Assembly: GCA_963748625.1 (NCBI GenBank)
Contig: CAVVJT010000010.1
Span: forward strand, 384,001-448,000
Origin: an uncultured Chloroflexia bacterium
Lineage (GTDB): Bacteria; Chloroflexota; Limnocylindria; Limnocylindrales; CSP1-4
Direction of reading: 5' to 3'
DNA length: 64,000 bases
A model generated the notes under the pieces. It was given only the letters and a program-made list of their open reading frames with translations, ran no database searches and was not told where the DNA came from. The translations under genes and the position numbers were made by a program. Shown piece after piece: positions 9,750-25,700 of the stretch. Position 1 is the stretch's first letter. The number at the start of each line of letters is the position of its first letter.

Positions 9750-9955
9750 TGCGGCATCGTAGGACCGCCGGTCGGCTGCGATAGGTGCCGACTGGACTTC
9801 GGCGTGTGGTCGCGCGAACTTCGGTCGTAGCGGCTAGGCCAGTCGGGGAGCTTGCGGTCCCGCCACGCGGTGCGTACTAGGAAGGTCCTGACGTCGATGA
9901 CAGGGTCCGCACGGGTGCCCAGCCGCGCATGGATGTCACCGCCTAGCAGCAGCGA

Positions 9956-10864
9956 TCAGCCGGACTTGGGGTGGCGTTTCCAGCGGTACTGGGTCGGCTC
10001 CAGGTCACCGTCCTCGATCCGCCACTGCGGGATGAAATCGAGTGTGCCGCCGTCGGCAACAACTGCGTCTCCGGACCGGTCGACCTTGATGCCGGTCACA
10101 ATGGCGAGCGCTGTGTTCGGGTACTTCTCCACCTGCCGGCGCTCGTTGATCGTGATCAGGATCTCCTGGAGTGACCCAACGAGACCCTTCACCTCGACGT
10201 GGAGTTCCTCGCCATCCCTAGTCGCGAGGTAGTCGTAGCTCCGGTTGAGGTGGACGTCCTCTACGTCCCAGTCGTCGCCCCTGAGGTGCGCGAGCGTCAA
10301 CTCCATCGCTCGCTCTTCGATGGCCTTTCGCGACTGCGCGTCGCTCGAGTAGCCTTGGCCACCAACCCGGACGATGCGCTCGAAGGCGGGCTGGTCGACC
10401 AAAAGGCCGCGGGCAAGGTCGTCCTCGAGTGCCGCAGGGGTCGCGTCTGTGCTGGGAAGCTGGACGACGAGCTTGATGCGCCGGGTGTTGTTCCCGGAGC
10501 CGGCCTTCGAGGCACGGTGGCCCACGGATCGCTGGGACCGCTGCAGGCTCAGGCGCGTCGCCTCGGGGTCGACCGACCGCAGGGAGACCGGAAACGGAGC
10601 TCCCGGGTCGAGCACCGTCTCAAAGCGAGGAAGAAACCCGGACCGGCTGGAGTCGACCACGGCGTCAAGCAGGACCGCGTCGAGGGCGCCAAGGCGGGCC
10701 AGGATGAGGTGCAGCCCACGCTCGTAGTCGAGGTGGCGCTCGTTGACGCCACCCTTGGCACCACCACGACTCTCAAGCCAAACGGCTAGGTGGCCATCCG
10801 ACGTGCCAGTGGAGAAGGTCGCATCGAGCGGGTGACCGCCCACATCCCGAACCTTGCGCGCCAA
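9956..10864 (-). CDS. Putative type IV restriction nuclease: EcoKMcrA-N-like domain plus DUF3883 PD-(D/E)XK domain
   Basis: C-terminus IEERAM..WDVEDV..SYDYLA..HVEVKG..ITINE (DUF3883). N-terminus LESRG..R..DY..L.RL..SGNNTRRI resembles the E. coli McrA N-terminal domain. Confidence 0.75.
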   Translation of the reverse strand: MARKVRDVGGHPLDATFSTGTSDGHLAVWLESRGGAKGGVNERHLDYERGLHLILARLGALDAVLLDAVVDSSRSGFLPRFETVLDPGAPFPVSLRSVDPEATRLSLQRSQRSVGHRASKAGSGNNTRRIKLVVQLPSTDATPAALEDDLARGLLVDQPAFERIVRVGGQGYSSDAQSRKAIEERAMELTLAHLRGDDWDVEDVHLNRSYDYLATRDGEELHVEVKGLVGSLQEILITINERRQVEKYPNTALAIVTGIKVDRSGDAVVADGGTLDFIPQWRIEDGDLEPTQYRWKRHPKSG

Positions 10865-10966
10865 TCGCCTGCCCCCAAACTGAAGCTGGAGTCACAGTCT
10901 ATGTCGTCATGGGACTTCCCCTGGCGGGCGCTGGATGTCCCGCCTGCGCCCCGCTAAGGTTCGCTC

Positions 10967-11437
10967 GTGCCGACCCACCGTGAGACCTACCACCCCGCCG
11001 ACTACCAGGCACCCGATGGGTCGTGGGCCTCATCAGAGCCGATCCGCCGGACGATGCTGGGTAATCGGGGCCGCGACACCAAGCCGGAACTGGCTGTGCG
11101 GCGTTTGCTTCATTCGCGCGGCTTGCGCTATCGCGTGGCATATAGGCCAGCCCGCTCAGTCCGTCGGTCCGCAGATCTTGTTTTCACTCGAGCTCGGGTC
11201 GCCGTATTCGTCGATGGATGCTTCTGGCACTGCTGTCCGCAGCATTTCCGGATGCCCGCTACCAACCGCGAATACTGGGAGCCGAAGCTCGCCGCGAACG
11301 TGGACCGGGATCGCCAGACCGATGATCTCCTCTCTGCGGAGGGCTGGACCGTCATCAGGGTGTGGGAGCACGAAGTCGCAGTTGAGGCTGCGACCCGCAT
11401 CGAGGATGTCGTGCGCTCAATGCGGAAGGCGCGGTGA
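10967..11437 (+). CDS. vsr: Very short patch repair endonuclease
   Basis: RDTKPEL..GLRYR..VFVDGCFWH..YW..K..NVDRD..GWTVIRVWEHE. Confidence 0.93.
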   Translation: MPTHRETYHPADYQAPDGSWASSEPIRRTMLGNRGRDTKPELAVRRLLHSRGLRYRVAYRPARSVRRSADLVFTRARVAVFVDGCFWHCCPQHFRMPATNREYWEPKLAANVDRDRQTDDLLSAEGWTVIRVWEHEVAVEAATRIEDVVRSMRKAR

Positions 11438-11543
11438 CACCGAACCTGGCACACTCCCTTCGTACTAAGAGTGCTCGCTGACCTCGCCTCAGACGATTGG
11501 AGTACCAGAGATCGCTCGGCGCCATGCTCCTGCAAGCGAAGAG

Positions 11544-12701
11544 ATGTTCCCGGAGTCAGCAGCCGATCGGATGCCCGCGGTGCCGTTCAACTACATCGAC
11601 CGGCCCCAGTTTCGGTTCGTCGACCTGTTTGCCGGGATTGGTGGGATCCGAAAGGGGCTGGAGAGTGCCGGCGGGCGCTGCGTCTTCACGGTAGAGATCG
11701 ACAAGTTCGCGAAACAGACGTACTCGGCGAACTTCGACCCGGTCGAGGCCGGAGATATCCGAAAGCTGCCCGCCGAGGACCTGCCGGTCTATGACGTGCT
11801 TGCGGGTGGGTTTCCCTGCCAGCCCTTCAGCCTCGCCGGCGTCAGCAAGAAGCTCAGTCTGGGGCGCCAGCACGGCTTCAGCGATGAGAAGAGCGGCAAC
11901 CTGTTCTTCGACATCGTGCGGCTCATCGACGACGCGCCGAGTCCCCCGCCGGCCCTCTTCCTCGAGAACGTCAAGCACCTGACGCGCCACGACAAGGGAC
12001 GCACCTTCGCGGTCATCCTGGCGACCCTTGAAGATCGTGGCTACAACGTCGTCTGGAAGGTGGTTGATGCCCGGCCTTGGGTGCCCCAGCACCGCGAGCG
12101 CACGTACATCGTCTGCCTGCATCGCGACTACTACGGCGACGCGCGCTTCGAGTTCCCGGAGATCCCCGCGGACGCTCCGTGGCCCTCCCTCGGATCGATC
12201 CTCGAGAGCGATCCGATCCCAGACCGGTACATCCTGACGGAACACCTCTGGCAGTACCTGCAGGACTACGCCCGGAAGCACCGCGAGCGGGGCAACGGAT
12301 TCGGGTATGGCCTAGTCAGTCCGGAGGATACGACCCGGACGCTGAGTGCCCGGTACCACAAGGATGGGTCGGAGATCCTCGTCCGAACGGACGGACCACA
12401 GCCGCGGCGCCTGACACCGCGCGAGTGCGCGCGTCTCATGGGCTACCCGGACACCTTCGACATCCCGGTTTCCGACACGCAGGCATACCGCCAGTTCGGC
12501 AACTCGGTCGTCGTGCCGGTGATCAGCTTCCTCGCACAGGCACTGGCATCGCAGGTGCCGCTGCGGCAGGCGCAACCGCTCGCAACACCAAGGGGGACAA
12601 CGCGAGTGACCCGGCGTGCCAAGAAGGTGGGGACCAAGTCAACTCAAGATCGCGATCTGCCGCAGGTGGCCTTTCCGTCTGAGGCTCTTGCCGAGGGCTA
12701 G
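11544..12701 (+). CDS. dcm: DNA (cytosine-5)-methyltransferase, Dcm/M.EcoRII-like (predicted CCWGG)
   Basis: DLFAGIGG, GGFPCQPFS, ENV, QHRER. Target-recognition region GNGFGYG..TRTLSARYHKDGSEIL and QAYRQFGNSVVVPV closely match Dcm. Confidence 0.93.
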   Translation: MFPESAADRMPAVPFNYIDRPQFRFVDLFAGIGGIRKGLESAGGRCVFTVEIDKFAKQTYSANFDPVEAGDIRKLPAEDLPVYDVLAGGFPCQPFSLAGVSKKLSLGRQHGFSDEKSGNLFFDIVRLIDDAPSPPPALFLENVKHLTRHDKGRTFAVILATLEDRGYNVVWKVVDARPWVPQHRERTYIVCLHRDYYGDARFEFPEIPADAPWPSLGSILESDPIPDRYILTEHLWQYLQDYARKHRERGNGFGYGLVSPEDTTRTLSARYHKDGSEILVRTDGPQPRRLTPRECARLMGYPDTFDIPVSDTQAYRQFGNSVVVPVISFLAQALASQVPLRQAQPLATPRGTTRVTRRAKKVGTKSTQDRDLPQVAFPSEALAEG

Positions 12702-12767
12702 TGCCGAGTGCAGGCGCCGGACCCGCGGTCCCGATGCTCGCGGAACCGCGAGCGCGCTCATCCCGAG

Positions 12768-13904
12768 CTACTCGCCCAACTCCACCTCGAAGGCCTCGCC
12801 AACGCGGTACAGGCGCATCCGTTCGCCAGTCCTCGCCCCGGCTCTACGCAGGAAGTCCCCGACTCCCGTGATCCGATACTCGTCGCGCGTGCTGGTGTTG
12901 AACCGCCGGCCGTTGTAGTGCACCAGGCGCCACGTCCACTTCGTCTCAAGACGCCGAAACAGAACGGACAGCTCCGCCGACGGGTTGACCGTTGACTCGT
13001 CCAAGCGAGTGATGGCTTCAGCCCAGTTGGCACCGATGGCAATTGCAGCCTGGTGGCTGCCCGTGTCCCCGATGTCGTTCGGCGAGAGATGCTTGTCGAG
13101 GACCAGGTCACGCGCAACGCCTGCAGTCGGGCCCGCCGACGGGTCCGCGATGGCCCGGCCCGCCGCCAACGCTGCCTCATCCACAAGGCGAAAGACAATG
13201 TCACGTACGTACTCGTCTGGCAGTGCGCGCAGTTCAACAACCGCACCCTCGCGGCGGACCCGCTTCGACGCCTCTCGCATGATCTCCATCCGAGATGGCT
13301 TGCCGCCAGTCTTCAGGGCGGCAACCGCGCCTCCCAGGTAGCGACCGACCCGGCGATCGCCTGACAGGCTGGAGCGCTCGGTGATCTGAACCAGTTCGTC
13401 TTCACCTAGGAGTCCGAGGAGCTCGTACGGGTCTCCTGCGCTCGGGTCGGACAGTAGTTCCGCCCGCCACCAGAGACGACCGAAGGTGTTGCGAATGCCC
13501 CTGTTCTCGCCAAGGAACCTCTCTCGAGACGTTGGCTCTCCGCTCTGGCCGGGGAACCGCCAACGCACGACATGTGGTGCAAGCACACAGCCGAGGAAAG
13601 CCCACACCCCAGGGTGAGATGCCTCGGCCGGCGACATGTTCAGTGTTCGATGCAGCAGGCGGGCGCCGTATCGATCGAAGTAGTGGATCCCGTCAGCCTT
13701 CTCCGCTTCACCGACAAGGGACGACAGCTTGGCTCGCAGGTCGTGTAGCTCCCTCTCACTGATGCGCGCGCCACCGGAGGTTCCGTACTGGACAAGTGGG
13801 TGCCTCGTGTCACTCAATCGCTGCAGTTGCGGCCATGCGACGCCGCGACGCTCGTCGGCCAATCTGCCGGCCTCAGAAGCGGGCAGGCGAGGCAGTAGGT
13901 TCAC
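12768..13904 (-). CDS. DUF6339-like protein fused to a C-terminal EcoRII-N (B3-like) DNA-binding domain
   Basis: EASHPGVWAFL..VRWRF..RNTFGRLWW (DUF6339-like); KHLSPNDIGDTGSHQ..NPS..HYNGRRF..TRDEYRIT (EcoRII-N-like). Confidence 0.8.
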   Translation of the reverse strand: MNLLPRLPASEAGRLADERRGVAWPQLQRLSDTRHPLVQYGTSGGARISERELHDLRAKLSSLVGEAEKADGIHYFDRYGARLLHRTLNMSPAEASHPGVWAFLGCVLAPHVVRWRFPGQSGEPTSRERFLGENRGIRNTFGRLWWRAELLSDPSAGDPYELLGLLGEDELVQITERSSLSGDRRVGRYLGGAVAALKTGGKPSRMEIMREASKRVRREGAVVELRALPDEYVRDIVFRLVDEAALAAGRAIADPSAGPTAGVARDLVLDKHLSPNDIGDTGSHQAAIAIGANWAEAITRLDESTVNPSAELSVLFRRLETKWTWRLVHYNGRRFNTSTRDEYRITGVGDFLRRAGARTGERMRLYRVGEAFEVELGE

Positions 13905-14809
13905 TCTGGAGCCTCATCGGTTGCTGCGAACGTTCGGAAGAAGCCCTGAAGCCCGGCCTCGATCTCTGCGGGGTGACTCGCATAGATCGCCTGCGCCTCA
14001 GCAAAGGCTGGATGCCCCGGCAGCGCCGCGATGAGGCGTCTCACGGCCTCTCCTACCGTGTCGTCGTCCAACTCCTCGACGTCCGCAGGCTGCCACAACG
14101 AGAGTGCCGTTCCAACCATGGTGCGTGCAACATCAAACCGGATCGCCTCTCGGATCGCGAGAGCATCAGGCTGTGTTGATCCGGTGGTCAGAGCACTGAC
14201 CACCCGCCTTGATCGTGAGTTGACCATGAGCCTGAGACCACCCAGCACGGGCATGGCCGGCCCCTGAATGTCCCAGTCCAGGTACCAGGCCGCATCCACG
14301 CTCATCCCCGGGACCGAGGAGAAGTCAACGATTTCGGTCGGGAACCTGGTGCCAGCGCCCGCCAGGCTCACCCTAACCTCATCCGACCATAGGACACTCC
14401 CTGGTCGACTTGCGACGAAGGGGCGGTCCTGCACCGAACGTGCGAGCACGAGCGCTACCTGGAGCTTGAGCCGCCCGGCAAGTTCCGCACCAGGAACCAC
14501 GCAGTCGATTGCGTGATGGTCGAGGTCAGCGTGCGGCTGCTGTTCGGCGAGATGTCCGCCGCGAATGCTCGTCCCGGAAGAGCTCCAGCCAAGAAACAAC
14601 CGCACCTCGTCTCCGGGCTGCAGTCCACAGTCCTCCATCACGTCCGCCAACATGAAGCCGACCTCGGCCTGGATGTGAAGGTCGGTTGCCGGGTCCCAAT
14701 CGTCGACCTTCAAAGGCACCGAGGCTTCACCGCGGAGCCTGTGCCACTCAACGAAGCTGATCCGGTCGTCCTCGACGGTCCAGAAGGGGCGAATGCGTGT
14801 GCGCGTCAT
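13901..14809 (-). CDS. Hypothetical protein within the defence operon
   Basis: 302-aa ORF with 4-nt start/stop overlaps to both neighbours. Confidence 0.8.
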   Translation of the reverse strand: MTRTRIRPFWTVEDDRISFVEWHRLRGEASVPLKVDDWDPATDLHIQAEVGFMLADVMEDCGLQPGDEVRLFLGWSSSGTSIRGGHLAEQQPHADLDHHAIDCVVPGAELAGRLKLQVALVLARSVQDRPFVASRPGSVLWSDEVRVSLAGAGTRFPTEIVDFSSVPGMSVDAAWYLDWDIQGPAMPVLGGLRLMVNSRSRRVVSALTTGSTQPDALAIREAIRFDVARTMVGTALSLWQPADVEELDDDTVGEAVRRLIAALPGHPAFAEAQAIYASHPAEIEAGLQGFFRTFAATDEAPE

Positions 14810-16689
14810 CGCTTGCCGCCCTCGAGGGGCACCGCAGTGAGCTCAAGACCGGTCGCCAGATCAGGGGACACCGTCCCAACAACGGCCCAATCGTCGCCAT
14901 CGATGCCTGCGTCGATCTGGACAACCTCACCCGCTATGAACTCGCCGGATGGCGTTCGCCAGCCGAGGACCTCTGGCTGCACAGCACCCGCGGGCACATC
15001 TGACTCGAAGGAGCCATCGTCAAGAACCGCAGCGGCTCGAGCAGTCACAAGCGATCCGAGAGTGCCCTTCTTGTGCTTGATGACGAAGGGCAGGATCACG
15101 ACAGGCCGCCCACCCTCGCCGCCGAACTCCGGCCGACCGGTCGTGATCCGTGCCCCCGGTCCAGTCGTTGTCCCGCGGCTCTTCTCGTGCTCGATCTCGC
15201 CCGGGCGATCTCCATCCGCGCCCAACAGGGCCGCGCCCAGGAAGTTGGTGAACTCCCCTACCGGTGCCTGAGGCTCGCTAGTGCCATGATCGGAAGCCTC
15301 GCCGCGATACGACTGCCCGACCTCGCGCACGGCCTTGAATACGGCGCGGACGACGCCCTTGGCCTCGCCCCCGTCAAGGTTGTCGACAACCCAATCGTCG
15401 TGGGCAGGCGGCTCGGAGTCCGCATAGTGGCGGTCATAGTGCCGATCCGCAATTACTACACCCCCGTACTCCATGACGTCGGTGCTCAGCTCGAGTGCGG
15501 GCACGTAGCGAACGACGAGCTCGGGCGTTCGCATCAGCGCGAAGTGGTGCGAGGGCGAAGAGAAGTCGGGTGGTCCCGCGACGGGCCGGGGAAACTTGAT
15601 CTGAGCTCCGCTGATGCGGCCCCGGGGCCGGATGGGGCCCATCTGAGCTGCTATCAACGCTACCCGGTTCCTCCAGTAGGTGACCTCTCGGGCCCTCGTG
15701 TCTCCGACGGGCACCTCCCCCGCATAGTTCTTGGCCGCCTTGTACGCGGCAACGTACAAGTCCAGCGGGGGAAACGCTTCGGGTGCCGGGACGATGAGAG
15801 GGGAGCCCTCCCAGCTCGCGGTGAAGTCAATCGCAGGCCGGCCATCCGAACCCGGCAGCATCTTCGGCCAGAAGTACCAGAGAAACCCTTCGACCAGGAA
15901 GGCCATAGCCCCGAGACCGAAGCCGCCGTCAAACTTCGGGTTGATGACGCCAATTGTGGTCCCGGTCTCGACGCGGTCGAACCCGGGCAATCCGAGCAGC
16001 TCGGCAGCTTCATCAGCCTCGGCATTGAGAAGGGGCTCGACAATCCCACCGCGCCTCTCGCCCCACCAGTGCCGTCCGGTGTAGCGACCCAGGTCAGGGC
16101 CCGTCCTTATGGCGTATCGGGGGCCAACACAGCTGATGATGAACCGAGACTCCAGGCTCCCAGCGTGTCGTGTCCGCGTGTAGACCGCGAGCGTCTGGGT
16201 CTCGGCCGCGAGGTAGAGGGCTGCCTTGCCGTACCCGTACGTTCCGCCGGTTGACACGCGGCGGTCCGGCGGCTCGCCGACATTCCTCAGGAAGTCGACG
16301 AAGTCGCGCGGCGCGTTGTCAGCAGTCATTTCATCTGCGCGCGTGGGCCCACCCAAGCCCTTCGTGCCGCGGTCGCTCAGTGCCAGAACCCAGGCGGGCC
16401 CGCCAGTGCGGACCACCTCGTAGAGCGGGAGTGTGTCCTCGCTCGCGCCCGGAGGAAGATCGCTGAAGAACCGGCGAACGATCTCGCTGCGCCGGGTCAC
16501 GGCGTACCCATCAAGCGCAAATCGGATCGTCGCTCCGATGTGCGCGTCCCACGAGTTCTGGACTGCCTCCCGCAGCATGATCGTCATGGGATCGATCGCC
16601 GGCCGGCCAAGCGGGTTCAGGAGGCCTTCTCCAGCCAGGTTCCCCATCGCTCCGAATGCTTCGGACTGAACGTGCAGCGATCCGATCAT
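14806..16689 (-). CDS. GHKL (MORC/MutL-like) ATPase-domain protein
   Basis: REAVQNSWDA (ExxxNxxD), SDRGTKGL (DxGxG), GGTYGYGK, GTTI. Confidence 0.82.
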   Translation of the reverse strand: MIGSLHVQSEAFGAMGNLAGEGLLNPLGRPAIDPMTIMLREAVQNSWDAHIGATIRFALDGYAVTRRSEIVRRFFSDLPPGASEDTLPLYEVVRTGGPAWVLALSDRGTKGLGGPTRADEMTADNAPRDFVDFLRNVGEPPDRRVSTGGTYGYGKAALYLAAETQTLAVYTRTRHAGSLESRFIISCVGPRYAIRTGPDLGRYTGRHWWGERRGGIVEPLLNAEADEAAELLGLPGFDRVETGTTIGVINPKFDGGFGLGAMAFLVEGFLWYFWPKMLPGSDGRPAIDFTASWEGSPLIVPAPEAFPPLDLYVAAYKAAKNYAGEVPVGDTRAREVTYWRNRVALIAAQMGPIRPRGRISGAQIKFPRPVAGPPDFSSPSHHFALMRTPELVVRYVPALELSTDVMEYGGVVIADRHYDRHYADSEPPAHDDWVVDNLDGGEAKGVVRAVFKAVREVGQSYRGEASDHGTSEPQAPVGEFTNFLGAALLGADGDRPGEIEHEKSRGTTTGPGARITTGRPEFGGEGGRPVVILPFVIKHKKGTLGSLVTARAAAVLDDGSFESDVPAGAVQPEVLGWRTPSGEFIAGEVVQIDAGIDGDDWAVVGTVSPDLATGLELTAVPLEGGKR

Positions 16690-17679
16690 CCGTGCAGCGA
16701 CTCCGCGAACTCAATGAGAAGGTCGCTCAGGACCCCGGCAGCGATGGGAGCAGGTGCCTCCTCGAGGTTCGATCTGGTACTGAAGTCCAACGACTCCGGC
16801 AACAGGCCACGCGTGGAAGGCTTGGGCGGTCAGCCGGGGGAACGTCCGATCAACGAGGAATGCTCTCCTTGTCTTGACCCGCAGCCGAGTCTGATCGTCC
16901 AAGAGGTCGGCCGCCGATACGCCGGCGGCATCGAGGCGGTCATAGAGCTCGACTGGCTGAACCCCCAAGGCGTGAATGCGTGAAACAAGGTCCTGAAGGG
17001 TGTCACCGCCAGCAGGGACCTTTTCCACGACGTAGACGACCAGTAGCAGGCGGCCGTCGGGTGGCGTTGCCAACTGGTCCACCCCATGGACAACCAGCGC
17101 TGTCATGCCGCGGTCGAAGGTCGTCTTCACCTCAATGTCGATGCCATCGCTGACGAAGTCGTGGCGACCCTTGGCTGGGCCCGCCCAAGAGCCAACGGCA
17201 TTCACGGACCTGCTTGAGAGCTCCTCCAGGAGCGTGAGTTCGCCAAACAGACCCATGCGCGCTGACTGGCTCAGGCCGCCCGCCGGCGGGTTCCGGAAGA
17301 GCTCCCGCCAGCGATCGAGCACGACGCTGGCGGCAAGATCCGGAGCGCTCATCCCGTCCGCTGCGCCGAGTGCCTCGACGGCAACAGCTGTGAACACGTG
17401 GTTGAGCCGCGCGTCGAGACATGCCAAGTCGACGAATGGCCGGAGCACACCGTCAACCAGCAGATCTCTCGGCACGATCTGCACGCCGCTGCTGCGTGTG
17501 TCGGGCCGGATTGCCCGGTCCGCCTCAGACGGGAAGAGAATGTGACGACGGCCCCATGGATCGACAGCTACCCGCGCCGTCGCCGGAGAGGGCAGTTCGA
17601 GCACCAAGTATTCATCGCGGGAGCCCTCCCCCGAAGCCAGGAGCCCCGCGAAGGCATCGTCCAAGCCGCGTAGGTCCAT
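16686..17679 (-). CDS. PD-(D/E)XK motif protein (DUF4420, MzaD-like), frameshift near 16768
   Basis: LDRWRELF..GLFGEL..WAGP..HDF..IEVKTT..DQL..FPRL. Removing one base gives YQIDL..LHG* with an ATGA overlap onto the next gene. Confidence 0.85.
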
Positions 17680-20268
17680 CAGGCAGCCCCATCAATCTCG
17701 TCATCGAAGTCCGTCTCGCCCTCGGGCTCTTCGACGTAGGCCTCCGCCAGGAAGGCGGTCTTGTAGGTCTGTGGCGTGCTGTTCTGGGCCTTCGGGAACA
17801 CGATGCCCAAGCCGATCACGTCCTCAACCGCACCGAGGGGCTCACGGTCCCCTCCGGCCTCTCCACCGTCCTTGTCCAGTACGTAGACGAGCAGAAGGGG
17901 AACTGCTGCCCTCCTCTCAAGGATCCGGTCCAGCGCCGCGGCGCCCGTCGGAGTCGTGCGATCTGCGAGATCAAGGACCAAGTCCCCGGCGCTCACGATG
18001 ACGCCCATGCGCGCAGTCGCATCATCGGACGCCTTCAGGCGGGACCGCTTGAGTGCACCCACCTTCACGTCGGGCGTGAACTTCACCTCTCGGCCATCAG
18101 AGCGTCCGATGAACGCGACATTCCACCGAGTGAGTTCCTGGCGCTTCACCTGGTCGCGGATGTATCCGCCGATGGTGTCGCCGGAGAGGCTGCGGGCACC
18201 TTCGTGGAAACGGTACGTCTCGACAAAGTCGAGCACGGATCCGTACTCGACCCCACGACAGACGACCGACCCGCGTACGTCGTACCGCTCGCTCGCGGCC
18301 GCCCTCGCGAGGCGCTCAGCAGCTCGAAGGTTGTCGCACAGGAACTGAGGGTCCCTGTGGTGGAACATGATCGTCTGCACCAATTGCCCGCTGAATGACA
18401 CCTCTGCGTCCACAGCCCGCCGCATCTTCAGCGGGGAGGTGATGCTCAGGGCCGGGTGGCAGCGGATCCTCGGCCCGAACTGACGGGGTGTCAGGCCTTC
18501 GCTTTCATACCGTGCTATGTCGAAACGGATCTCCTGCTCAACCAGCGCGAGATCGGCGAACGATCCTTCCAGCTCCTTGGTCATCCAGATCCGCGGCAAG
18601 TCCTCGTACCCGTCACGGTAGCCAAACCAGCGACCCATCTGGAGGAGCGTGTCGTACGAGCCCGCGGCCCGGACGAAGTAGCTGACCACAAGGCCCTCGA
18701 GAGTGAGCCCTCTCGATAGGACGTTCCCCCCGATCACGATGAACACGGACCCGGGCTTGGCATAAGTGAGGCGCCTCGCACTCTGGGCGTTCTCGATGAC
18801 TACCTCGAGTGCGGCGAGCACTCCGGGAAGTGCTTCGGCCAGTTCTACAAACGCGACCGACCTAGGCCACAGCCCCTCGGGCTGAACGCGTCCCACCTCT
18901 GCAGCCCACAGCGAGCGGAGCTCCTCGATGAGGGTGGCATCGCCGCTGTCGATCTTCTGCTTGAGTTCGGCAAGAAGACCGCCGAGCGCATGGGCCATCT
19001 TGTTCTGCACGTCCACGTACATCGAGGTGTGTACGAGCATGCTGGAGTGCTCGTCCCGATCGCCGCGCGCCCAGCGAGCTGCAGTTGCCATCACGAAGTA
19101 GGCGGTAGCAGAGCGGAGCGACTCGGTGACCTCCGGATCGAACTGGCCGCGCGACTTTGCCGTCCGTGGCTGAAGAGCGACGATCTCGTCTTCAGGGACC
19201 TGCCGGACGACGTCCAGGCCGGGCCTTCCTGTTTCTGACTCGTCCGGCAAGCGGTCTCGTCCGAACAGGCGCTCCGTGCCGAAATAGGTCCCCGGCCGCG
19301 GCAGGTCGAAGATGAAGTCGCGGGGGTACAGGTCGTCATCCTCGGCGTCCCGCATGCCGATGAGGACATTCGCGAATGGAGTGGCGGTGTAGCCAACGTA
19401 AGCGGAACGGGGATACACGCGGAGGAGTTCGCGAATCCGGTCGTTGATGGAGGACGGATCGGAGTCGGACGCGGTGTTCGATACTCGCCTGATCTGCCTC
19501 ATCGTCAATGACCAGGAGCGGGCAGTCCGCGAGGACACCCGAACTGGCCCTCCGACTCCACGTGATCAACTTCTTCAGGCGCACGGAGTTCTTCTTAACG
19601 ACCGCCAAGACGCGCTGGTCGCTGTCACCACGGAGGATCGCGTCCGGCTGCTTCCAGCTCCCAACCTTGAAGTCAGATTCCTCACTTGTGAGGCTGTGCC
19701 ACATCTGTTTCGTAAGAGGTGTGAGGTCGACTATCTCGCGGTCCAACCGCTTCTGCGTCTGGACTCGCAGTGCCTCATGCACGCCCGCAAGCACGATGAT
19801 GAATTTGTACCCGGCATCCGCCGCCTTAGCGACCACGGCCGAGTAGTTGGCGGTCTTGCCGCTCTGTACGTACCCAAGGACGAGGCCGCGGGAGTCGAAT
19901 TCGGCTTGTGCCGGATTTGGCAGATGCGCAACAATTCTCGAGCTCGCGCTGTCAATGCTGGAAACGGCCTCTTGGGGGAGCCGCTTTTCCAGCGCCCGGC
20001 GCATCTCCGGCCAGAACGGGTCGTTGGGATGTGGGTTCTGGTACCAGCCCTTGTCCTTCACATCGACAAAGCCGGCAGGGATCTTGTACTTGCGGATCCG
20101 ATCTGCTCGCGCTTCAAAGATCGACAAAGCTGCGGCCAGCCGATCCGGAGGGACCCACCGACTCAGGTCCTGCACCGCCTTGTCTGCGGTCTTTCCGTCC
20201 CGAACCGCGCCGCGAATCGCGTCTACCAGGGGCTCCAGGTCCAAATCCTCGAAGATCGGTTCTTCCAC
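17679..20268 (-). CDS. Z1-domain SF2-helicase-like protein (MzaC-like), frameshift near 19479
   Basis: GLVLGYVQSGKTANY, LVIDDEADQAS, YVGYTATPFAN, GGNVLSRGLTLEGL, YDTLLQMGRWFGYR. The two ORFs join by removing one base. Confidence 0.9.
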
Positions 20269-20385
20269 CGCTACTTCCTCCCCGGCAATCTGCCGCCAGC
20301 CGTCAAGTGCGTGCGCACGCTCACACGTGTTGAGCGAACCTCAGGATCGCGCCTCGACGATCGGGGCAGCGTCCTCGCCCGAACG

Positions 20386-22740
20386 TTAGCCATCCTGCGA
20401 ATCTCCAAGCACTCGCCCTAGGGTCGTTCCCCATCGCGGCGTGATGCGCCGGGTCGCCGGATCGAAGGTGAGAGTGAACGTCGGTCCGGCGTCACCCTGG
20501 CGACGGAACCACGGCTTCACGCCGTTCCGCAACTGCGTCGCGGCGACAACGACCATCCAAGACACATCGCCGTCCTGCAGGGTCCAGGATCCGTCGAGGC
20601 CCGCGTCGGCCGGAACCCGGAGGAAACCGTTCCAGTCCAAGGCATCGCGGACGTCGACGGTCAACCTGACACGGCCAGCTGGATCCCGATCGACACCCGA
20701 GACCACGGCTGGCGCAGGGCCGCCCCGACCGGCATCGGCCGCACGGGCGGCATCAAGGTCCGCGGTGGTGAAGCTCGCACCCGGGATCGCGTAGAGCGAC
20801 GCACCTACCCGTTCCACAACCAGCGACTGGCCCAGCGCCACGCTCATCGTCACCACTTCAATGCCTGCGGCAAGGACCTGGCGCCGGATCACGTGGTAGT
20901 GGACGACGGGGCCACGAGCGCGGAGCACTTCCAGCACGACCCGCTCCGCCACTCCCGGCTGAACGTCCATATCCGGACCGATCCACGCGTACCGCGACCC
21001 TGTATCCCGAACGAATGGACTCTGCGCGAGCGCCTCCTCAAGAACGGCCATTGGGAGTGAAACACCGTGGTCCGCGCGGCGACGAGCATCGCGACGGAGC
21101 GCACGGTTGATCGAGTGGAGCCCCTGCGGCCCCACCACTAGGAGCAGCTTGGCCACGCGCTTGACGAACGGCGTCTCCAGGTCTCGCGGTCGCCACGCCC
21201 AGCAACCACCAGCAAGCCAGCCGATGCCGTCAAGGCCGGCGATATGTTCACGAACCCCTTCCGGATCAACCACGACGCCGATAAGGTCCAACTCCGCTTG
21301 CACCTCGGCAAGCGAGACGAAACCACGACGGCGCAACTGCCGTCGCACTGCTCCGCGAAGTGCTCCATCGTTGGTCTGTATGGCCGCGATGGCTTCCTTC
21401 GACACGCCAAGGACATCCCCGTCCTCGGACTCAACCACTGACCAATCCCGCACCAGCTTCAGGCGCCCGATCTCCTCGAGCGCCTCAAGCTCGACCTCGC
21501 GGTTGGTGAGGCCCATCTGCCGGCACTCGACAGCCAAGTCACGGCGTCGCATCGCTCCGCCCGCCTGCTGCAGGAGGGCCTGGATAAGACACGCGGTCGG
21601 CAGGAAGCGGCCGCGTTCAAGCTGCTTCCGCTCCACCTTGTCAACGATCTGGCGAATCCGCTCACGCGTGAGCTTGTACTCCTGCGCGACCTCATCGAGC
21701 GTCTTTCGACCATCACCGTCCCAACCCCAACGCCTGCAGAGGATCTCGCCGGACCGGTTGGCCGGCACCAAGGCTGACAACTCATCGGACAGGCGCTGTG
21801 GGTGTTCGAGCCGGTCGGCGATGAGCAGGAGCCCCGTCCTGAGTTGATCCCGATACCCCACGAGGCCACGGCGCTGGTCGATCGTCTCACCGAGCACCTC
21901 GCGAATCGAGACATGCTCCGTGCTTCGGAGCCCCAACTGCGGGTCGCTCAGCAGGATCTGGTCCAGCCAAGGATCGAGCATCGTTTGCGCATCCGCCGGA
22001 AGGTCGAGCCACTCCCCGATCGGCGTATGGGCAACGACGGCGGGGTCTTCGGCGGTCTGCTGCTCTGCACGCATCAAGTCAGCGACGCGGGCGTGTCGGT
22101 CGCTGCGAATTGGAGGGGGGCCAGCAAGGGCCTTCAGGATCCCGCTTCGGAGCAATTCGAGCGCGGTCTTGCCGACGGCGTAGAAGGAGAGGAACCGCTC
22201 CTCGGAAAGATCGGCGATGTTGGCGAAGACCAGGTATCCCTCGCGACGGAGCCTGTTGGCGGCGCGGCTGCCAACGACCTCCTCGGTGATTAGCTCGTCC
22301 GACCAGGGTTCTGACTTCAGGACGGCTGCGGTATCCGCGTCGAAGATCGGGGTCCCAGCGACCAAGCCCTGGCGTACGGCCGGGTTCGCGACCCCGGCGT
22401 CTCGCGCATCGGGGATCGGACGCGTGACGAGATCCGTGACGCGCTCCTGCAGGAGGGCGAGCGACGTGACGCCTGCTCCCCGGATCGCCAGGAACTCCTG
22501 CTGCGTGATGCCGGCTAGATGGGCGAGGACCGAGAAGCCAGCGCGCCGAAGGCAGTTGAACCCGCGGACCCCGATGAGATCCGCGGTGATGGAAACGTCC
22601 CGCCAGGGATCTTCGCGGAGCAGCTGCGAGATGGCTGCCGGAAAGACGGGCTCGTCAGGGGCAGGCTTGGGCGCTTGAGCTGGCGCTGGCACGACCCTGC
22701 CCGCGGCGCGAACCCGGAACCGGTGCTTCATCGCGGCCAT
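20386..22740 (-). CDS. Protein with two RNA polymerase alpha-CTD-like HhH domains and a sigma-70 region 4 HTH
   Basis: GVRGFNCLRRAG..EFLAIRGAGVTSL; GSRAANRLRREG..FYAVGKTAL; ILCRRWG..TLDEVAQEYKLTRERIRQI. RBS GGGGGAG before the ATG at 22740. Confidence 0.8.
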   Translation of the reverse strand: MAAMKHRFRVRAAGRVVPAPAQAPKPAPDEPVFPAAISQLLREDPWRDVSITADLIGVRGFNCLRRAGFSVLAHLAGITQQEFLAIRGAGVTSLALLQERVTDLVTRPIPDARDAGVANPAVRQGLVAGTPIFDADTAAVLKSEPWSDELITEEVVGSRAANRLRREGYLVFANIADLSEERFLSFYAVGKTALELLRSGILKALAGPPPIRSDRHARVADLMRAEQQTAEDPAVVAHTPIGEWLDLPADAQTMLDPWLDQILLSDPQLGLRSTEHVSIREVLGETIDQRRGLVGYRDQLRTGLLLIADRLEHPQRLSDELSALVPANRSGEILCRRWGWDGDGRKTLDEVAQEYKLTRERIRQIVDKVERKQLERGRFLPTACLIQALLQQAGGAMRRRDLAVECRQMGLTNREVELEALEEIGRLKLVRDWSVVESEDGDVLGVSKEAIAAIQTNDGALRGAVRRQLRRRGFVSLAEVQAELDLIGVVVDPEGVREHIAGLDGIGWLAGGCWAWRPRDLETPFVKRVAKLLLVVGPQGLHSINRALRRDARRRADHGVSLPMAVLEEALAQSPFVRDTGSRYAWIGPDMDVQPGVAERVVLEVLRARGPVVHYHVIRRQVLAAGIEVVTMSVALGQSLVVERVGASLYAIPGASFTTADLDAARAADAGRGGPAPAVVSGVDRDPAGRVRLTVDVRDALDWNGFLRVPADAGLDGSWTLQDGDVSWMVVVAATQLRNGVKPWFRRQGDAGPTFTLTFDPATRRITPRWGTTLGRVLGDSQDG

Positions 22741-22780
22741 GTCTCCCCCTTGGCACAATGCCGATCTATCAACTCCCCCA

Positions 22781-25700
22781 TCACACCCGCTCCGGGCACA
22801 TCGCCCGATAGTCGCACCACTGGCACGCCTTGCCGGGGGTCGCCGTGAAGTCGCCCGAGCGGATCCGGGCCGCGCGCTCCAGGATCGCCACGCGGGCCGC
22901 ATCGAGCTGGTCGTCCGTGCGGGTGGTGGACATCCGCTGGGCGGTCTCGGTGAAGTAGAGGGTGACGCGCTCGGGCGTGCCCAGGGCCAGCGCGTCGCGG
23001 CAGGCGAGGGCGTAGATGGTCAGCTGGAGGTTCTCGCTGACGTCCTTCTGGCTGGACATGCGGCCGGTCTTGTAGTCGATGACCTCGACGCCGCCGTCCG
23101 GCGTCCGATCGATCCGGTCGATCCCGCCGTGGATGCGCACGGGCGCGCTGCCGTCGTCGGGCATGAGCACGAGCTCGAAGTCCAGCTCCTCGTGCAGGGC
23201 CTCCCCCACCCCCTCCAGCTCGCCTGACCAGAAGTTGTCCAGCATGGTGTCGATGCGGCGCTTGTAGCCGGCCTCGGCGGTGGCGTCGGGGAAGGCCTCG
23301 GGCGTCCAGTTGGCGGCGAAGAGGGTGGCGAGGTCCTCGCGCGTGGGCATGGGCTCGCCCCGCGCGGCGCGCTCGCGGCGCTCCCTGGTGAACGCCTCGA
23401 AGGTGGCGTGCGCCGTGTGACCGAACCCGAAGGCGGCCACGGGCCGGGCGGGCTCCGGGATCCGGTAGACGTAGGCCAGGGCGTACCGCAGCGGACACGC
23501 CTCGTACATGGACAGGCTGCTGTACGAGAAGTGGCCGGGCACGGGCGCCACGGCGAGGAGGTTCGCGCCGGCCCCACTGTCGAGCGCGACGGTCCGGAAG
23601 GTGAGCGGGTCAAGGCCGGCGGCACGGGCCTGGTCTGCCGACATGGCCGCGGACCGGCCGATGTCCACCAGCTGCTGCTCGAACCGGGCCCGGGCGGCGT
23701 CGGCCTCGGGATCGGCGGCAGCGGTGGCCTCCATGCAGGCCGATGAGCTCGGATGCGCGCAGGCGCAGCGCGAGGCGACGCTCACGCGACGAGGGCAGCG
23801 GGAGGACCCGGCGGGCGGCGGCCAGGGCGGCTGTGGCACCGGCAAGACCATCGGGCCCGTCGGCTCCGGCTTCGGTTTGGGTTCCGTCTTCGGCGGCTTC
23901 GGCGTCGGCGGCTTCGGCATCGGCGTCGTCGTCGTCCAGCGTCCGGTCGATGACGGTCAGCTCCGGCCCCCGGCCGTCGAGCAGCTCCGCGATGAACATG
24001 CTCTGGGCCTTCGCGCCCGCGCCCCCGTGCGTGCACAGGAGCAGGCGTTCCTGCGCCCGGGTGATCGCCACGTACAGGAGCCGCCGCTCCTCGTCGAGGT
24101 GGAGGTTGCCGCCCGGGACCTGCTCGCGCAGGAGCTCGCGCGGGAACCAGCCGCTCCCCTGCTCCTTCACGGGCCACTCGCCCTCGAGCAGGTCCGGCAC
24201 CACCACCACGGGGAACTCCAGGCCCTTCGCCTGGTAGAGGGTCATGAGGCGCACGCCCTCGACATCCTCGGACAGCTCCACGCTGGTGGGCAGCTCGCCG
24301 CCCGCGGTCTTGAAGGCCTCGAGGTAGTCGATGAAGTCCGCCAGGGTGCCGCTCGGGTTGGCGGCCTGCCAGTCCGCGGTGAAGCGCAGGAAGCTCGCGA
24401 TGGCGACGACGGAGCGCTTGGCCTCCAGGGTGCCGGTGGCCAGGAGGTCCAGCACGGTGCCGTTGAGCTCCAGGTAGCGCTCCAGGATGGTGTGCGGGCC
24501 GTCGCGCCAGGTCCGCGGGTTGAGCTCCTCGATGGCGGCAAGGAGGTTGCGCAGCTTCGCCCGGAGGGCGGGATCGACGGGGGCGCGGCGTTCGGTTCGG
24601 TCGCCGCCGTTGCCGTTTGCGCCGTTGTTGCCGTTGCCGTTGCCGTTGTTGCCGCTGGCGCCGTGGTGGCTGGTGTCGCCGGCAGCGGGCGCGAGGTTGG
24701 CCTCGCCGCTGTCCACCAGCCGGTGGACGGCCGAGAGCAGGTGGCTGCGGTCGAACTTGGCATCGCGGCTGACCGCGAGGATCTCCAGGGCGTCGAGGCG
24801 CCACGGGCCGCCGGTCATCATGCGCACGAGGGCGGCGTCGTTGGTGGGATCGGCGATGGCGCGCAGGGCCTGCTCGAGGTCCCGGATCTCCGGCGTCTCG
24901 AAGAGCGACAGCCCACCGACGATGGTGAACGGGATGTCCTCCGCCTTGAGCCGATCGACGATGGCGTCGCGGTGCTTGTGCTTGCGGTACAGGACGGCGA
25001 CGTCGTTCCAGGCGCGGCCGGCGGCGTGGAAGGCGCGGATGGCGTCCACGATGGCGACGGCCTCGTCCTCGGGCCCGGCGCAGACGTGGAGCTCGATGGG
25101 GTCGCCCGGGTGCTTGTCGGTCCGCAGGACCTTGTCGGGCGCGAAGCGGGTCTCGTTGCGGCCGATGAGGCGGTTGGCGGCGTCGAGCACGAAGCTGGTG
25201 CTGCGGAAGTTCTGCTCGATGGCGAGGTGGCGCGGGGGTGCGGCCGGCTCCAGGTCGGGCGCGTGCGCCGGGGGCCGACTGAAGCGGGCGTCGAATTCGG
25301 CGAAGGCGGCGAAGCTGGCGCCCCGGAAGCGGTAGATCGACTGGTCGTCGTCACCCACCACCATGACGTTGTCGGGCCGATCGGGCGTGCGGCCCAGAAG
25401 CTCGATGAGCTCGATCTGGGCGACGTTGGCGTCCTGGAACTCGTCCACCAGGATGTAGCGGAACTGGCGCTGCCATCGACGGAGGACGTTGGGGCGGCGT
25501 CTTGAAGAGGCGGGCGACCAGGGCGATCTGCTCGCCGAAGTCGAGGAGGCCGCGCGCGGCGATGGTGTCCTCGTAGGCGCGATAGACGCGGGCGATCTCG
25601 GCGAGGCGCATGACCTCCAGGGCGGCGCCGTCGAGGACGTAGGTGGCGGCGAGCTCATCGATGCGTTGGAGTTGATCGCCGTCCAGGCGGTTGCGGCCGA

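Follow-up and report, generated by a model that had tools for sequence, protein, structure and literature searches.

A putative methylation-keyed restriction island with a DEAD-Z1 motor, a DUF4420 nuclease and a Dcm-Vsr pair in an uncultured Chloroflexota bacterium

Island and gene organization

In a 64,000-nucleotide stretch of an uncultured Chloroflexia genome (the window), a vsr-dcm pair on the plus strand is convergent with a minus-strand set of genes in the order alphaCTD/sigma-4, DEAD-Z1, DUF4420, 627-aa GHKL-like, 302-aa and DUF6339-EcoRII-N. The question raised by this locus is whether these genes and the methylase form a single restriction system. The reading preferred here, with a probability of roughly 0.6, is that the island encodes a multi-subunit restriction system that is driven by ATP, keyed to methylation and of the DEAD-Z1 helicase/DUF4420 nuclease class; we infer that the five-gene cassette running from Z1 to DUF6339 has restriction activity.

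Pfam, NCBIfam and PADLOC matches agree with the ORF coordinates and place the genes where the initial annotation had put them (Table 1). That annotation had also described the region as less GC-rich than its surroundings, and the GC content is indeed 0.62-0.66 over positions 10001-22000 and 0.68-0.73 in the flanks, in a genome of approximately 71% GC. The vsr-dcm pair and the helicase gene set constitute a horizontally acquired island. Start/stop overlaps were said to join the last five minus-strand genes. Three junctions have them (TGATG between Z1 and DUF4420, with an overlap of 1 nt; ATGA between the GHKL-like and 302-aa genes; GTGA between the 302-aa and DUF6339 genes), but DUF4420 and the GHKL-like gene overlap (ATGA) only if DUF4420 is read on in the frame that follows its frameshift.

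Table 1. Features of the island, in window coordinates
Feature	Position	Strand	Evidence
NOV_C (DUF3883-type) C-terminal domain protein, 302 aa, D...EVK motif	9956-10864	-	PF13020, 2e-8
vsr, T:G mismatch endonuclease	10967-11437	+	TIGR00632, 2.1e-38, 131 bits (cut-off 97.85); PF03852, 7.7e-17
dcm, Dcm-type C5 cytosine methyltransferase	11544-12701	+	PF00145, 2.9e-81; PADLOC DrmMII, 2.7e-125
DUF6339 fused to EcoRII-N	12768-13904	-	DUF6339, 1.5e-15; EcoRII-N PF09217, 5.5e-8, 33.2 bits (cut-off 25)
Conserved 302-aa protein	13901-14809	-	no family match
627-aa GHKL-like (Bergerat) motif protein	14806-16689	-	motifs only
DUF4420 PD-(D/E)XK nuclease	16686-17679 (ORF as called 16711-17679)	-	PF14390, 8.8e-42
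DEAD-Z1 SF2 helicase-like motor	17679-20268 (ORFs 17679-19538 and 19336-20268)	-	PF10593, 2e-65
alphaCTD and sigma-70 region 4 protein, 785 aa	20386-22743	-	RNA_pol_A_CTD, 1.3e-7; Sigma70_r4, 7.2e-7

Methylase, Vsr endonuclease and neighbouring nuclease candidate

The methylase shares 49% identity with E. coli K-12 Dcm (E-value: 7e-101), including the variable target-recognition region between motifs VIII and IX, and its best PDB matches are 3LX6/3ME5 (310 bits; M.HhaI, 193). It is predicted to be CCWGG-specific, and its gene is the only PF00145 match in the source genome (G000). Vsr repairs deaminated 5-methylcytosine. Both dcm and vsr are intact.

A profile search found no EcoRII-C match in the source genome; the same model detected this domain at a related locus, L044 (E-value: 2.8e-49). 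To this extent the earlier statement that the island has no standalone restriction endonuclease stands, but it overlooks the NOV_C protein with its D...EVK motif. This protein is encoded within the low-GC island, divergently from the adjoining vsr, and occurs in 2 of the 401 genomes of the phylum sample, source genome included. It may be regarded as a candidate PD-(D/E)XK nuclease.

DUF6339-EcoRII-N and its 302-aa partner

The DUF6339 protein consists of an all-helical part (residues 1-253) followed by an EcoRII-N/B3 DNA-binding pseudobarrel (residues ~266-378; positions 12768-13109). Its AlphaFold model (pLDDT 93.3, pTM 0.76) has Foldseek matches only to B3, EcoRII-N, BfiI-C and UbaLAI domains (28% identity to 3HQF), with none to the helical part. 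In EcoRII-N the base-contact residues are N28, H36, Q37, Y85, R94, E96 and R98, and in EcoRII 5-methylcytosine on either strand abolishes binding by this domain, according to the available text of PMC2770665. Alignment of the reader domain with 1NA6/3HQF (E-value: 3.9e-4 for 3HQF) revealed that all seven contacts are kept in the window protein, as they are in each of P0001-P0006. With the similarity of the methylase to Dcm, this upholds the proposal that reader and methylase point to one site.

The EcoRII-N domain is nevertheless found on only 6 of 42 DUF6339 relatives and, because the fusion is so rare, is an addition to the subunit, not the core device for recognition. Three cassettes with a Dcm-like methylase (L009, L010 and L044) also lack it, and so it cannot be the general recognition device that it had been taken for. 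A B3-like tail is present on DUF6339 in four loci (the window, G152, G153 and G391), all with Dcm-like methylases, which are 55-57% identical to that of the window. EcoRII-N is a lineage-specific add-on gained by the DUF6339 subunit.

The 302-aa protein has no match in Pfam, NCBIfam or PADLOC. Its model (pLDDT 86.7) has a beta-sandwich at the N-terminus and a helical bundle at the C-terminus, with generic beta-sandwich matches only in Foldseek (TMq <=0.26). Complex prediction with DUF6339 residues 1-256 gave an ipSAE of 0.82, a mark attained by 58 of 80 solved complexes and, among mismatched pairs, by 2 of 110; the best of three controls scored 0.00. At least 95% of the contacts agree between runs (partner pLDDT 81), and the 302-aa protein is predicted to be the partner of the DUF6339 domain.

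GHKL-like protein

The 627-aa protein had been annotated as a GHKL ATPase. Three Bergerat-type motifs (E41xxxN45xxD48A49, D106xGTxG111 and G149xxG152xG154K155) are invariant in 69 sequences, but no Pfam or NCBIfam match was found even with relaxed cut-offs (E<=10 or E<=1), its profile had no PDB match at E<=10, and hhalign gave probabilities of 1% for E. coli MutL and 0.2% for a HATPase_c_3 family. The GHKL assignment, made on motifs, is unproven and the ATPase fold unconfirmed.

Motor, nuclease and frameshifts

GKT, DEAD and QxxR motifs are present in the Z1 protein. The catalytic residues of DUF4420 (E147, D174 and E183-V-K185) are intact, with E, D and ExK invariant in the alignment columns. 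Both genes contain frameshifts, each genuinely present in the given sequence. A one-base insertion at ~19479 (about 19476-19482) breaks Z1 into two ORFs between the DEAD and Z1 halves; its homologues are each encoded by one ORF (855-921 aa). A second one-base insertion, at ~16767-16773, replaces the last ~25 residues of DUF4420, and the alternative frame restores a YQI(D/N)L end and the ATGA overlap. Because each gene has such an insertion, the window copy may be dead or mis-assembled. Should the frameshifts be real, Dcm-Vsr would be the only working part and the restriction arm would be inactive.

That the window copy is a decaying remnant, with its restriction arm inactivated and the island now an orphan Dcm-Vsr pair, is given slightly less than an even chance. 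The two insertions, the intact dcm and vsr, and the fragmentary cassettes in three of the six other same-order genomes with a match (G127, G152 and G349) are consistent with decay. The inserted Z1 base is absent from ~98% identical contigs of two metagenome runs (X1 and X4), and H.CglI activity could not be reconstituted from separate domains, according to the available text of PMC5861437. On the other hand, assembly indels are possible because the genome is in 10 contigs with 7.74% contamination, and no metagenome run containing the source genome was found (best share of words 0.08). The catalytic motifs are otherwise all intact, and the DUF4420 shift affects the tail only. Decay of the window copy does not conflict with the preferred reading of the intact system.

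Conservation and neighbourhood of the cassette

The cassette (Z1, DUF4420, GHKL-like, 302-aa and DUF6339) recurs in the same order at 13 distinct loci in several phyla, and the alphaCTD/sigma-4 gene is not among the conserved genes. Of seven genome loci, six keep the order and one is truncated by a contig end; of 17 further loci, 11 keep it and the others are short or decayed. A PF00145 gene lies beside the cassette at L001, L002, L003, L004, L006, L007, L012, L014 and L016, and tblastn located a methylase at L009, L010, L013, L028, L043 and L044. Among the 16 distinct loci reaching past the DUF6339 gene, 15 have a methylase, and every one found is of the C5 class; the available sequence of L024/L025 has an IS element at that place and no methylase. 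Vsr or an HhH-GPD glycosylase adjoins the cassette at many loci.

The cassette might instead be a defence system in its own right, either independent of methylation or abortive, that shares islands with C5 restriction-modification genes, the Dcm-Vsr pair belonging to another restriction enzyme, lost or unrecognised. L044 encodes a complete EcoRII (N and C) after dcm-vsr, L010 an EcoRII-C protein, and L006 and L007 HNH_2 genes; therefore, the methylase may belong to a neighbouring classical restriction-modification pair. The putative NOV_C nuclease next to the window vsr is consistent with this, as are other defence genes near related loci (NERD-UvrD, Schlafen/AlbA_2, AbiEi, EAD7 and TIR). Cassette subunit similarity also does not follow methylase type: for loci sharing a Dcm-like methylase, subunit identity is 32-39% within the group vs 31-38% between groups, and no subunit is closer within the group. 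This alternative is nonetheless unlikely, given the near-constant C5 methylase, the T:G repair gene alongside many cassette methylases and the functional tie made by a methylation-sensitive CCWGG reader fused to a cassette subunit. The available text of Iyer et al. 2008 (PMC2292703) likewise reports helicase, RE-fold and GHKL proteins associated in the same way with cytosine methylases and Vsr.

The constant linkage to C5 methylases and to Vsr or a thymine-glycosylase-type enzyme could also suggest a repair helper for 5-methylcytosine damage, similar to MutL, UvrD and exonuclease acting with Vsr, rather than a restriction enzyme; Iyer et al. liken MutL-Vsr-UvrD to such operons in the portion of PMC2292703 available. 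This is highly improbable. The distribution is sporadic and island-borne: within the order the cassette occurs in 7 of 401 genomes, and none of the 38 genomes of the genus has it. The neighbours are defence-island genes. In the available texts, the homologous CglI Z1 motor serves restriction (PMC5861437) and EcoRII-N binds unmethylated sites, not mismatches (PMC2770665).

Relationship to known systems

The gene set is not the novel one-off first supposed; sets of this kind had already been pointed out (Iyer 2008, Puigbo 2017 and Miller 2022). The five-gene cassette fits the island that Puigbo et al. described in C. diphtheriae BH8 and the 'type I' putative defence system of Miller et al. 2022 (PMC9523054), for which the available text reports no experiment. 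According to that text, type I has a large Z1, a PD-(D/E)XK DUF4420, a cytosine methyltransferase and three further genes, is widespread and shows a strong association with DNA repair endonucleases. The further genes, unnamed there, are likely to be GHKL-like, 302-aa and DUF6339; an EcoRII-N fusion such as that of the window is not mentioned.

In the MORC/paraMORC operons of Iyer, Abhiman and Aravind (PMC2292703, as available), an SFII helicase, a novel nuclease of the RE fold (E-D-ExK) and a GHKL protein are laterally mobile alongside cytosine methylase and Vsr, and one GHKL family is swapped for another in related operons. None of the GHKL profiles tried matches the 627-aa protein, and the available text describes no DUF6339 or 302-aa partners.

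The EcoRII (type IIE)/Dcm-Vsr set resembles the island in its base contacts, methylase and Vsr, but in the window the reader domain forms the C-terminus of an unrelated helical protein, and no EcoRII-C was found in the genome. PADLOC PDC-M33, named in no paper found in a literature search, is matched weakly by the GHKL-like protein (PDC-M33A, 1.2e-5; relatives 1e-17 to 5.5e-13) and, also with low scores, by DUF6339 (PDC-M33C); PDC-M33B matched neither the 302-aa protein nor five of its relatives.

Mza (mzaABCDE) was reportedly described by Gao et al. in 2020. PADLOC Mza models matched Z1 (MzaC, 3.3e-75 and 1.2e-29) and DUF4420 (MzaD, 1e-12), and a sigma-4-containing gene lies upstream in both systems. 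Z1 also matched PADLOC Helicase_II (~2e-15). The absence of AIPR and the presence of extra subunits were correctly noted, there being no MzaB or AIPR/MzaE match and three other proteins instead. The label 'Mza-like' is loose, however, as NCBIfam scores are far under the equivalog cut-offs (309+120 vs 1500, 50.5 vs 420 and 31.8 vs 800 bits).

A biochemical precedent is provided by CglI/NgoAVII, which, in the available texts (PMC5861437, PMC4267653, PMC4267654, PMC5737866), combine a DEAD-Z1 motor, a B3/EcoRII-N-type reader, a nuclease and a C5 methyltransferase. The H.CglI DEAD-Z1 pair is a dsDNA translocase required for cleavage (PMC5861437, as available). QxxR motif VI is common to CglI and the window Z1, and the Z1 profile matches in the C. 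glutamicum control genome. CglI has two subunits with the reader fused to a PLD-family nuclease, whereas the window has five proteins, with a separate PD-(D/E)XK nuclease (DUF4420) and the reader on DUF6339. CglI recognises GCCGC; the predicted site in the window is CCWGG.

The proposed model for the restriction system is as follows. The DUF6339 subunit would dock on the 302-aa protein and tether or license the complex at unmethylated CCWGG. The Z1 motor would translocate DNA, as in CglI, and DUF4420 would cut it. Self DNA would be marked by Dcm, and the T:G damage that Dcm causes would be repaired by Vsr.

The alphaCTD/sigma-4 gene

The 785-aa protein, encoded 117 nt upstream of Z1, had been counted as a member of the system with two alphaCTDs. 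Pfam supports one alphaCTD and Sigma70_r4, but the second alphaCTD is visible by eye only, and ~400 aa of C-terminal sequence have no family assignment. NCBIfam MzaA scored 31.8 bits (cut-off 800). As no homologue was present in any related locus fetched, membership is not upheld, and the gene is a near-orphan outside the conserved cassette, with three distant relatives (22% identity) among 5.8 billion proteins.

Gene organization of the island

The observations behind the initial annotation, in which the locus was read as a multi-subunit restriction system, are largely right. The EcoRII-N fusion is its new part; the cassette to which this domain is attached is of a putative kind already described in the literature. 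The genes lie in a stretch (approximately 10,000-22,900) with a GC content of 0.62-0.66, compared with approximately 70% across the window. Five minus-strand genes, encoding Z1, DUF4420, 627-aa, 302-aa and DUF6339 proteins, form a cassette that converges on vsr and dcm. The four cassette junctions are start/stop overlaps (TGATG, ATGA, ATGA and GTGA), which argues that the last five genes of the minus-strand set are translationally coupled. The island is bordered on the left by a DEAD/Helicase_C gene and on the right by a PDDEXK_1 gene, beyond which lies a gene for a UvrD-type helicase. No tRNA gene was found at window positions 1-30000, and a promoter and terminator scan gave no promoter-like and four terminator-like sites, fewer than the shuffle mean, with none at the convergent junction.

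Genes of the island, with window positions and supporting matches (E-values where numerical)
Gene or product	Position	Strand	Evidence
NOV_C-domain protein, 302 aa, D...EVK motif	9956-10864	-	adjoins vsr, inside low-GC stretch
vsr	10967-11437	+	TIGR00632, 2.1e-38
C5 methyltransferase (dcm)	11544-12701	+	PF00145, 2.9e-81
DUF6339 + EcoRII-N	12768-13904	-	1.5e-15 / 5.5e-8
302-aa protein	13901-14809	-	no family match
627-aa protein	14806-16689	-	no Pfam or NCBIfam match
DUF4420	16711-17679 (as called)	-	8.8e-42
Z1 helicase, two ORFs	17679-19538 + 19336-20268	-	PF10593, 2e-65
RNA_pol_A_CTD + Sigma70_r4 protein	20386-22743	-	Pfam domains

The NOV_C-domain protein may be a PD-(D/E)XK nuclease that has so far gone unrecognised. 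It is rare, being encoded by 2 of 401 genomes in a phylum sample.

A search of 5.8 billion proteins gave three distant relatives (22% identity) of the alphaCTD/sigma-4 protein, which is encoded upstream of Z1; the fetched cassette loci contained no homologue of it. It is a local neighbour and not a cassette member, and the role initially assigned to it was overstated. If translation began at 22902, as in its longest ORF, the gene would run into the PDDEXK_1 gene upstream of it (end 22781); a start at the ATG at 22743 is more likely. Visual inspection shows a second alphaCTD-like repeat after the one detected by Pfam.

Conservation and distribution of the cassette

Loci with a gene for a relative of the DUF6339 protein were collected from reference genomes (7 loci), metagenomes (24 loci) and genomes of the same order. 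In tblastn searches with the window proteins, the order Z1-DUF4420-627-aa-302-aa-DUF6339 was found in six of the seven genome loci, and the last four genes were seen in the seventh, which is cut by a contig end. Of 17 further loci, 11 showed this order in the same searches; among the remaining six, L009, L013 and L028 are short contigs and L042, L046 and L047 are fragmentary copies. Once duplicates were removed (L005 and L017, equivalent to L004; L025, to L024; L045, to L002), 13 distinct complete loci remained, so that the gene set is less novel than was first suggested.

Named records of cassette loci belong to Chloroflexota and Polyangiaceae. The cassette is also carried by RefSeq plasmids of Agrobacterium and Synechococcus, where it is annotated as a Z1 domain-containing protein, a PD-(D/E)XK motif protein, two hypothetical proteins and a DUF6339 family protein. 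In the window's order, the DUF6339 protein is encoded by 7 of 401 genomes (including the window's own) and by none of the 38 other genomes of the genus, which points to a sporadic, horizontally moved island. In G391, another genome of the same order, a UvrD/PDDEXK_1 (AdnAB-like) gene lies directly next to the cassette (L043 16889-19825), as at 22781-26519 in the window, but with no alphaCTD/sigma-4 gene. This arrangement suggests that L043 and the window share an insertion site. Stop-ridden cassette fragments in L042, L046 and L047 (genomes G127, G152 and G349, all of the same order) adjoin intact-looking dcm/vsr matches, with two tandem dcm-vsr pairs in L046.

A C5 methyltransferase gene adjoins the cassette in most loci, as confirmed by Pfam for L001, L002, L003, L004, L006, L007, L012, L014 and L016 and by tblastn for L009, L010, L013, L028, L043 and L044. 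The exception is L024/L025, in which an IS element follows the DUF6339 gene. Many of these loci also have a gene for T:G repair, which is vsr in the window, L002, L004, L009, L010, L014, L043 and L044 and encodes an HhH-GPD/EndoIII-type glycosylase in L001, L006 and L007.

Other neighbours are typical of defence islands: an EAD7 effector-associated domain protein (L001 2192-2950), a NERD-UvrD helicase (L002 1525-3237), a Schlafen AlbA_2/HATPase_c_4 protein (L003 852-2252), an AbiEi antitoxin (L007 863-1645) and a TIR-FGE-sulfatase protein (L025 9450-11282). The Agrobacterium salinitolerans plasmid pAtCFBP5507a (L056) encodes Z1, two hypothetical proteins and DUF6339 at 6258-12442, with only 272 nt separating Z1 from the following gene and no DUF4420 listed; the gene listing in PLSDB may not be complete here. 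A separate set of genes a few kb away (15344-19713) encodes a DEAD/DEAH helicase, a standalone EcoRII-N protein of 142 aa, a HATPase_c_3 ATPase and an HNH endonuclease. This set is a further machine of the helicase/GHKL/nuclease type that has an EcoRII-N reader.

Reader domain and methylase

In the model of the DUF6339 protein (pLDDT 93.3), a beta-barrel domain lies C-terminal to an all-helical region (residues 1-253). Only the barrel had matches in Foldseek, namely plant B3 domains, EcoRII-N (3HQF, 28% identity), BfiI-C and UbaLAI. The protein has the conserved domain PF09217 (EcoRII-N; 33.2 bits, cut-off 25), and its barrel aligns with EcoRII in phmmer (3HQF, E-value: 3.9e-4). All seven base-contacting residues of EcoRII-N, as listed by Golovenko et al. 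2009 (PMC2770665), are kept (N276, H284, Q285, Y330, R340, E342 and R344), as are 7 of the 10 backbone contacts. The same seven base contacts are present in all six relatives that have the EcoRII-N fusion (P0001-P0006).

The methylase has 49% identity, variable region included, to Dcm of E. coli K-12 (E-value: 7e-101). The PF00145 match covers positions 1-322 of 324, and in PDB searches the methylase scored 310 bits on Dcm-type entries and 193 bits on M.HhaI. It is the sole PF00145 gene found in the genome. The kept base contacts and the likeness to Dcm mean that the predicted CCWGG specificity is well supported for both partners. The match between reader and methylase proposed in the initial annotation thus stands, and the restriction logic drawn from it is likely correct. 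Golovenko et al. 2009 (PMC2770665) report that EcoRII-N no longer binds when the inner cytosine of either strand is C5-methylated. The fusion protein shares the EcoRII-N effector domain and its CCWGG contacts with EcoRII, a type IIE enzyme, but differs in that it ends after the B3 domain; the catalytic EcoRII-C domain (PF09019) had no match in the window's genome. CCWGG avoidance was uninformative (observed/expected ratio of 0.98; 27,297 sites).

EcoRII-N as an add-on

Although central to the initial reading, the EcoRII-N domain has a more limited role in the family than was claimed, and it is an add-on. Among 42 DUF6339 relatives with precomputed Pfam assignments, it is present in 6, a Sigma-54 DNA-binding domain is present in 2 and DUF6339 stands alone in 34, some of which have tails without a Pfam assignment. 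The Sigma-54 type is exemplified by L016 10001-11575 (E-value: 1.5e-38) and likewise by P0028 and P0035. The Dcm-like methylase adjoining the fusion gene in L016 (12190-13581) bears an N-terminal MerR HTH. Divergent B3-like tails in L002 and L043 keep 3/7 and 2/7 of the base contacts, respectively, and a bare DUF6339 protein is found in L009, L010 and L044 despite a Dcm-like methylase (57-60% identity) in each.

In L044 (10334-11551; genome G232), directly after the cassette with its bare DUF6339, a complete EcoRII homologue follows dcm-vsr (EcoRII-N E-value: 4.3e-35, EcoRII-C E-value: 2.8e-49), and an EcoRII-C-only protein is encoded at the same place in L010 (8301-9062). The EcoRII-N fusion may derive from these genes. 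No cassette subunit is more alike among loci with a Dcm-like methylase (identity of 32-39% within that group and 31-38% between groups), so the cassette core has no visible co-variation with methylase type.

The fusion is useful because it points to the DNA-facing subunit and because the specificity that it predicts, unmethylated CCWGG, can be checked. An otherwise anonymous set of genes thereby becomes a restriction system open to experiment.

The 627-aa and 302-aa proteins

The 627-aa protein was initially labelled a GHKL ATPase. Its motifs ExxxNxxDA, DxGTxG and GxxGxGK correspond to the N-box, G1 and G2 in GHKL order, and across 69 sequences E41, N45, D48, A49, D106, T109, G111, G149, G152 and G154 are invariant and K155 nearly so. 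This part of the label stands; a link to known GHKL families does not. The protein had no match in Pfam (E-value ≤10), NCBIfam or a PDB profile search, and hhalign gave probabilities of 1% against MutL and 0.2% against a HATPase_c_3 family, and no link to an individual HATPase_c_3 protein. An Atlas search returned unnamed clusters only, one of them auto-named 'ATP-binding protein'. On the strength of the ordered motifs, a GHKL fold is likely.

The model of the 302-aa protein (pLDDT 86.7) combines a beta-sandwich with a helical bundle. Its Foldseek matches were all to generic beta-sandwiches, the PDB profile search gave none and the Atlas search gave unnamed clusters. In complex prediction, this protein and DUF6339 residues 1-256 scored 0.82, compared with 0.00 for the best of three controls. 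Among 80 solved complexes, 58 score this high, as do 2 of 110 mismatched pairs; because custom alignments were used, these counts are rough. At least 95% of contacts are shared between the runs (partner pLDDT 81), and the predicted interface joins DUF6339 residues 222-228 to the beta-sandwich of the 302-aa protein. This prediction supports binding of DUF6339 to the 302-aa protein.

A more far-reaching model for these proteins, to which we assign a probability of only about 0.3, is as follows. The GHKL-motif, beta-sandwich and DUF6339 proteins would form a three-protein licensing module that replaces the MutL and AIPR components of Mza and programs a generic Z1/DUF4420 engine. The DUF6339 C-terminus would be a socket for swappable readers (EcoRII-N; Sigma-54 in L016, P0028 and P0035; other tails), by which the engine is re-aimed at the mark of the neighbouring C5 methylase. 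If true, ATP-dependent restriction would here follow a new design principle that rests on three folds without a solved relative. For three of the five cassette proteins, there is neither a solved relative nor a published experiment, and family annotation does not go beyond a DUF. The cassette is nonetheless common: residues 1-260 of the 627-aa protein, its N-terminal domain with the GHKL motifs, match 1225 clusters at the 50% identity level with E-values ≤1e-3 (474 with E-values ≤1e-30).

Comparison with known systems

Mza, reportedly described by Gao and co-workers in 2020, is said to comprise MzaA (sigma-70), MzaB (MutL-like GHKL), MzaC (Z1), MzaD (DUF4420) and MzaE (AIPR). The motor core of the locus had been called Mza-like, a description that is loose by the PADLOC and NCBIfam models, as only distant Z1 and DUF4420 proteins are common to both and every equivalog test fails. 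The match to MzaA (NF041931) reaches 31.8 bits (cut-off 800) and involves the sigma-4 HTH only (PADLOC MzaA E-value: 1.4e-4). No ORF of the locus matches the MzaB models of PADLOC or NCBIfam. MzaC (309.3 and 120.2 bits, cut-off 1500) and MzaD (50.5 bits, cut-off 420) are homologous but far below the equivalog cut-offs, and AIPR/MzaE is unmatched in the 10 ORFs scanned with Pfam, PADLOC and NCBIfam. Matches to PADLOC PDC-M33 are weak (A, 1.2e-5; C, 3.6e-9; B, no match).

The enzymes CglI and NgoAVII provide the nearest tested mechanism, in which a Z1 motor works with a B3 reader alongside a C5 methylase. They are two-gene (R and H) systems with the B3-like reader on a PLD-family nuclease, whereas the window encodes five cassette proteins, with the reader on DUF6339 and a separate PD-(D/E)XK nuclease. 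CglI is merely cited in the MANTIS preprint. The putative 'type I' system of Miller et al. 2022 (PMC9523054) has Z1, DUF4420, a cytosine methylase and three further genes, with associated repair endonucleases. These named components are shared with the window and the number of extra genes agrees; compared by text description, the two are very probably the same cassette. Puigbo et al. 2017 describe a C. diphtheriae BH8 island in which a Z1 helicase, DUF4420 and a Dcm-like methylase occur together with an 'EcoRII-like' gene and three proteins that are unclassified. Iyer et al. 2008 (PMC2292703) predict a restriction-modification system of an SFII helicase, an RE-fold nuclease, a GHKL protein, a cytosine methylase and Vsr. 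No paper naming DUF6339 or PDC-M33 was found in the literature searched.

DUF4420 and DUF6339 had no match in any of the 14 control genomes. BsuMI, considered as a relative, was dropped because Z1 had no match in the B. subtilis control genome and, among the controls, was found only in C. glutamicum.

Motor, nuclease and frameshifts

The Z1 protein has the motifs GKT, DEAD and QxxR (motif VI; PADLOC Helicase_II E-value: ~2e-15), which are features of the DEAD-Z1 motor of H.CglI (PMC5861437). In DUF4420, E147, D174 and E183-V-K185 are invariant among relatives; an E-D-ExK signature is given for the novel RE-fold protein of such operons by Iyer et al. 2008 (PMC2292703). Profiles of the Z1 C-terminal part and DUF4420 had no match in the PDB.

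Both genes are frameshifted in the window, and the finding therefore weighs less for the source genome. Z1 homologues are single ORFs of 855-921 aa; the alignment of the window's two ORFs to them switches frame at 19477-19484, directly after DEADQAS. The DUF4420 ORF departs from the conserved YQIDL tail of the family at approximately 16770, and the neighbouring frame has a plausible tail whose TGA overlaps the ATG of the next gene, as in all relatives. Each frameshift reads as one extra base in the heptamer ATCGAAC (16767-16773 and 19476-19482, minus strand). A third copy (13645-13651) leaves its reading frame unharmed, and the window has 7 copies where 6.3 are expected. Systematic sequencing error at this heptamer was rejected, as frame changes are not in excess genome-wide: they were found at 11 of 126 ATCGAAC sites and 535 of 9021 random sites and, in a second test, at 30 of 344 ATCGAAC sites compared with 3-10% in nine control heptamers.

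The window's copy of the cassette may be broken. If real, the split between DEAD and Z1 would probably be inactivating, by analogy with H.CglI, whose separated domains did not restore activity (PMC5861437). Assembly error is a possible source of the frameshifts, since the source genome is in 10 contigs with 7.74% contamination. No sequencing run containing this genome was found (best DNA share 0.08; no RNA run listed). Short contigs with ~98% identity from two freshwater metagenome runs (X1 and X4) are without the base at 19479, and an intact Z1 allele therefore exists.
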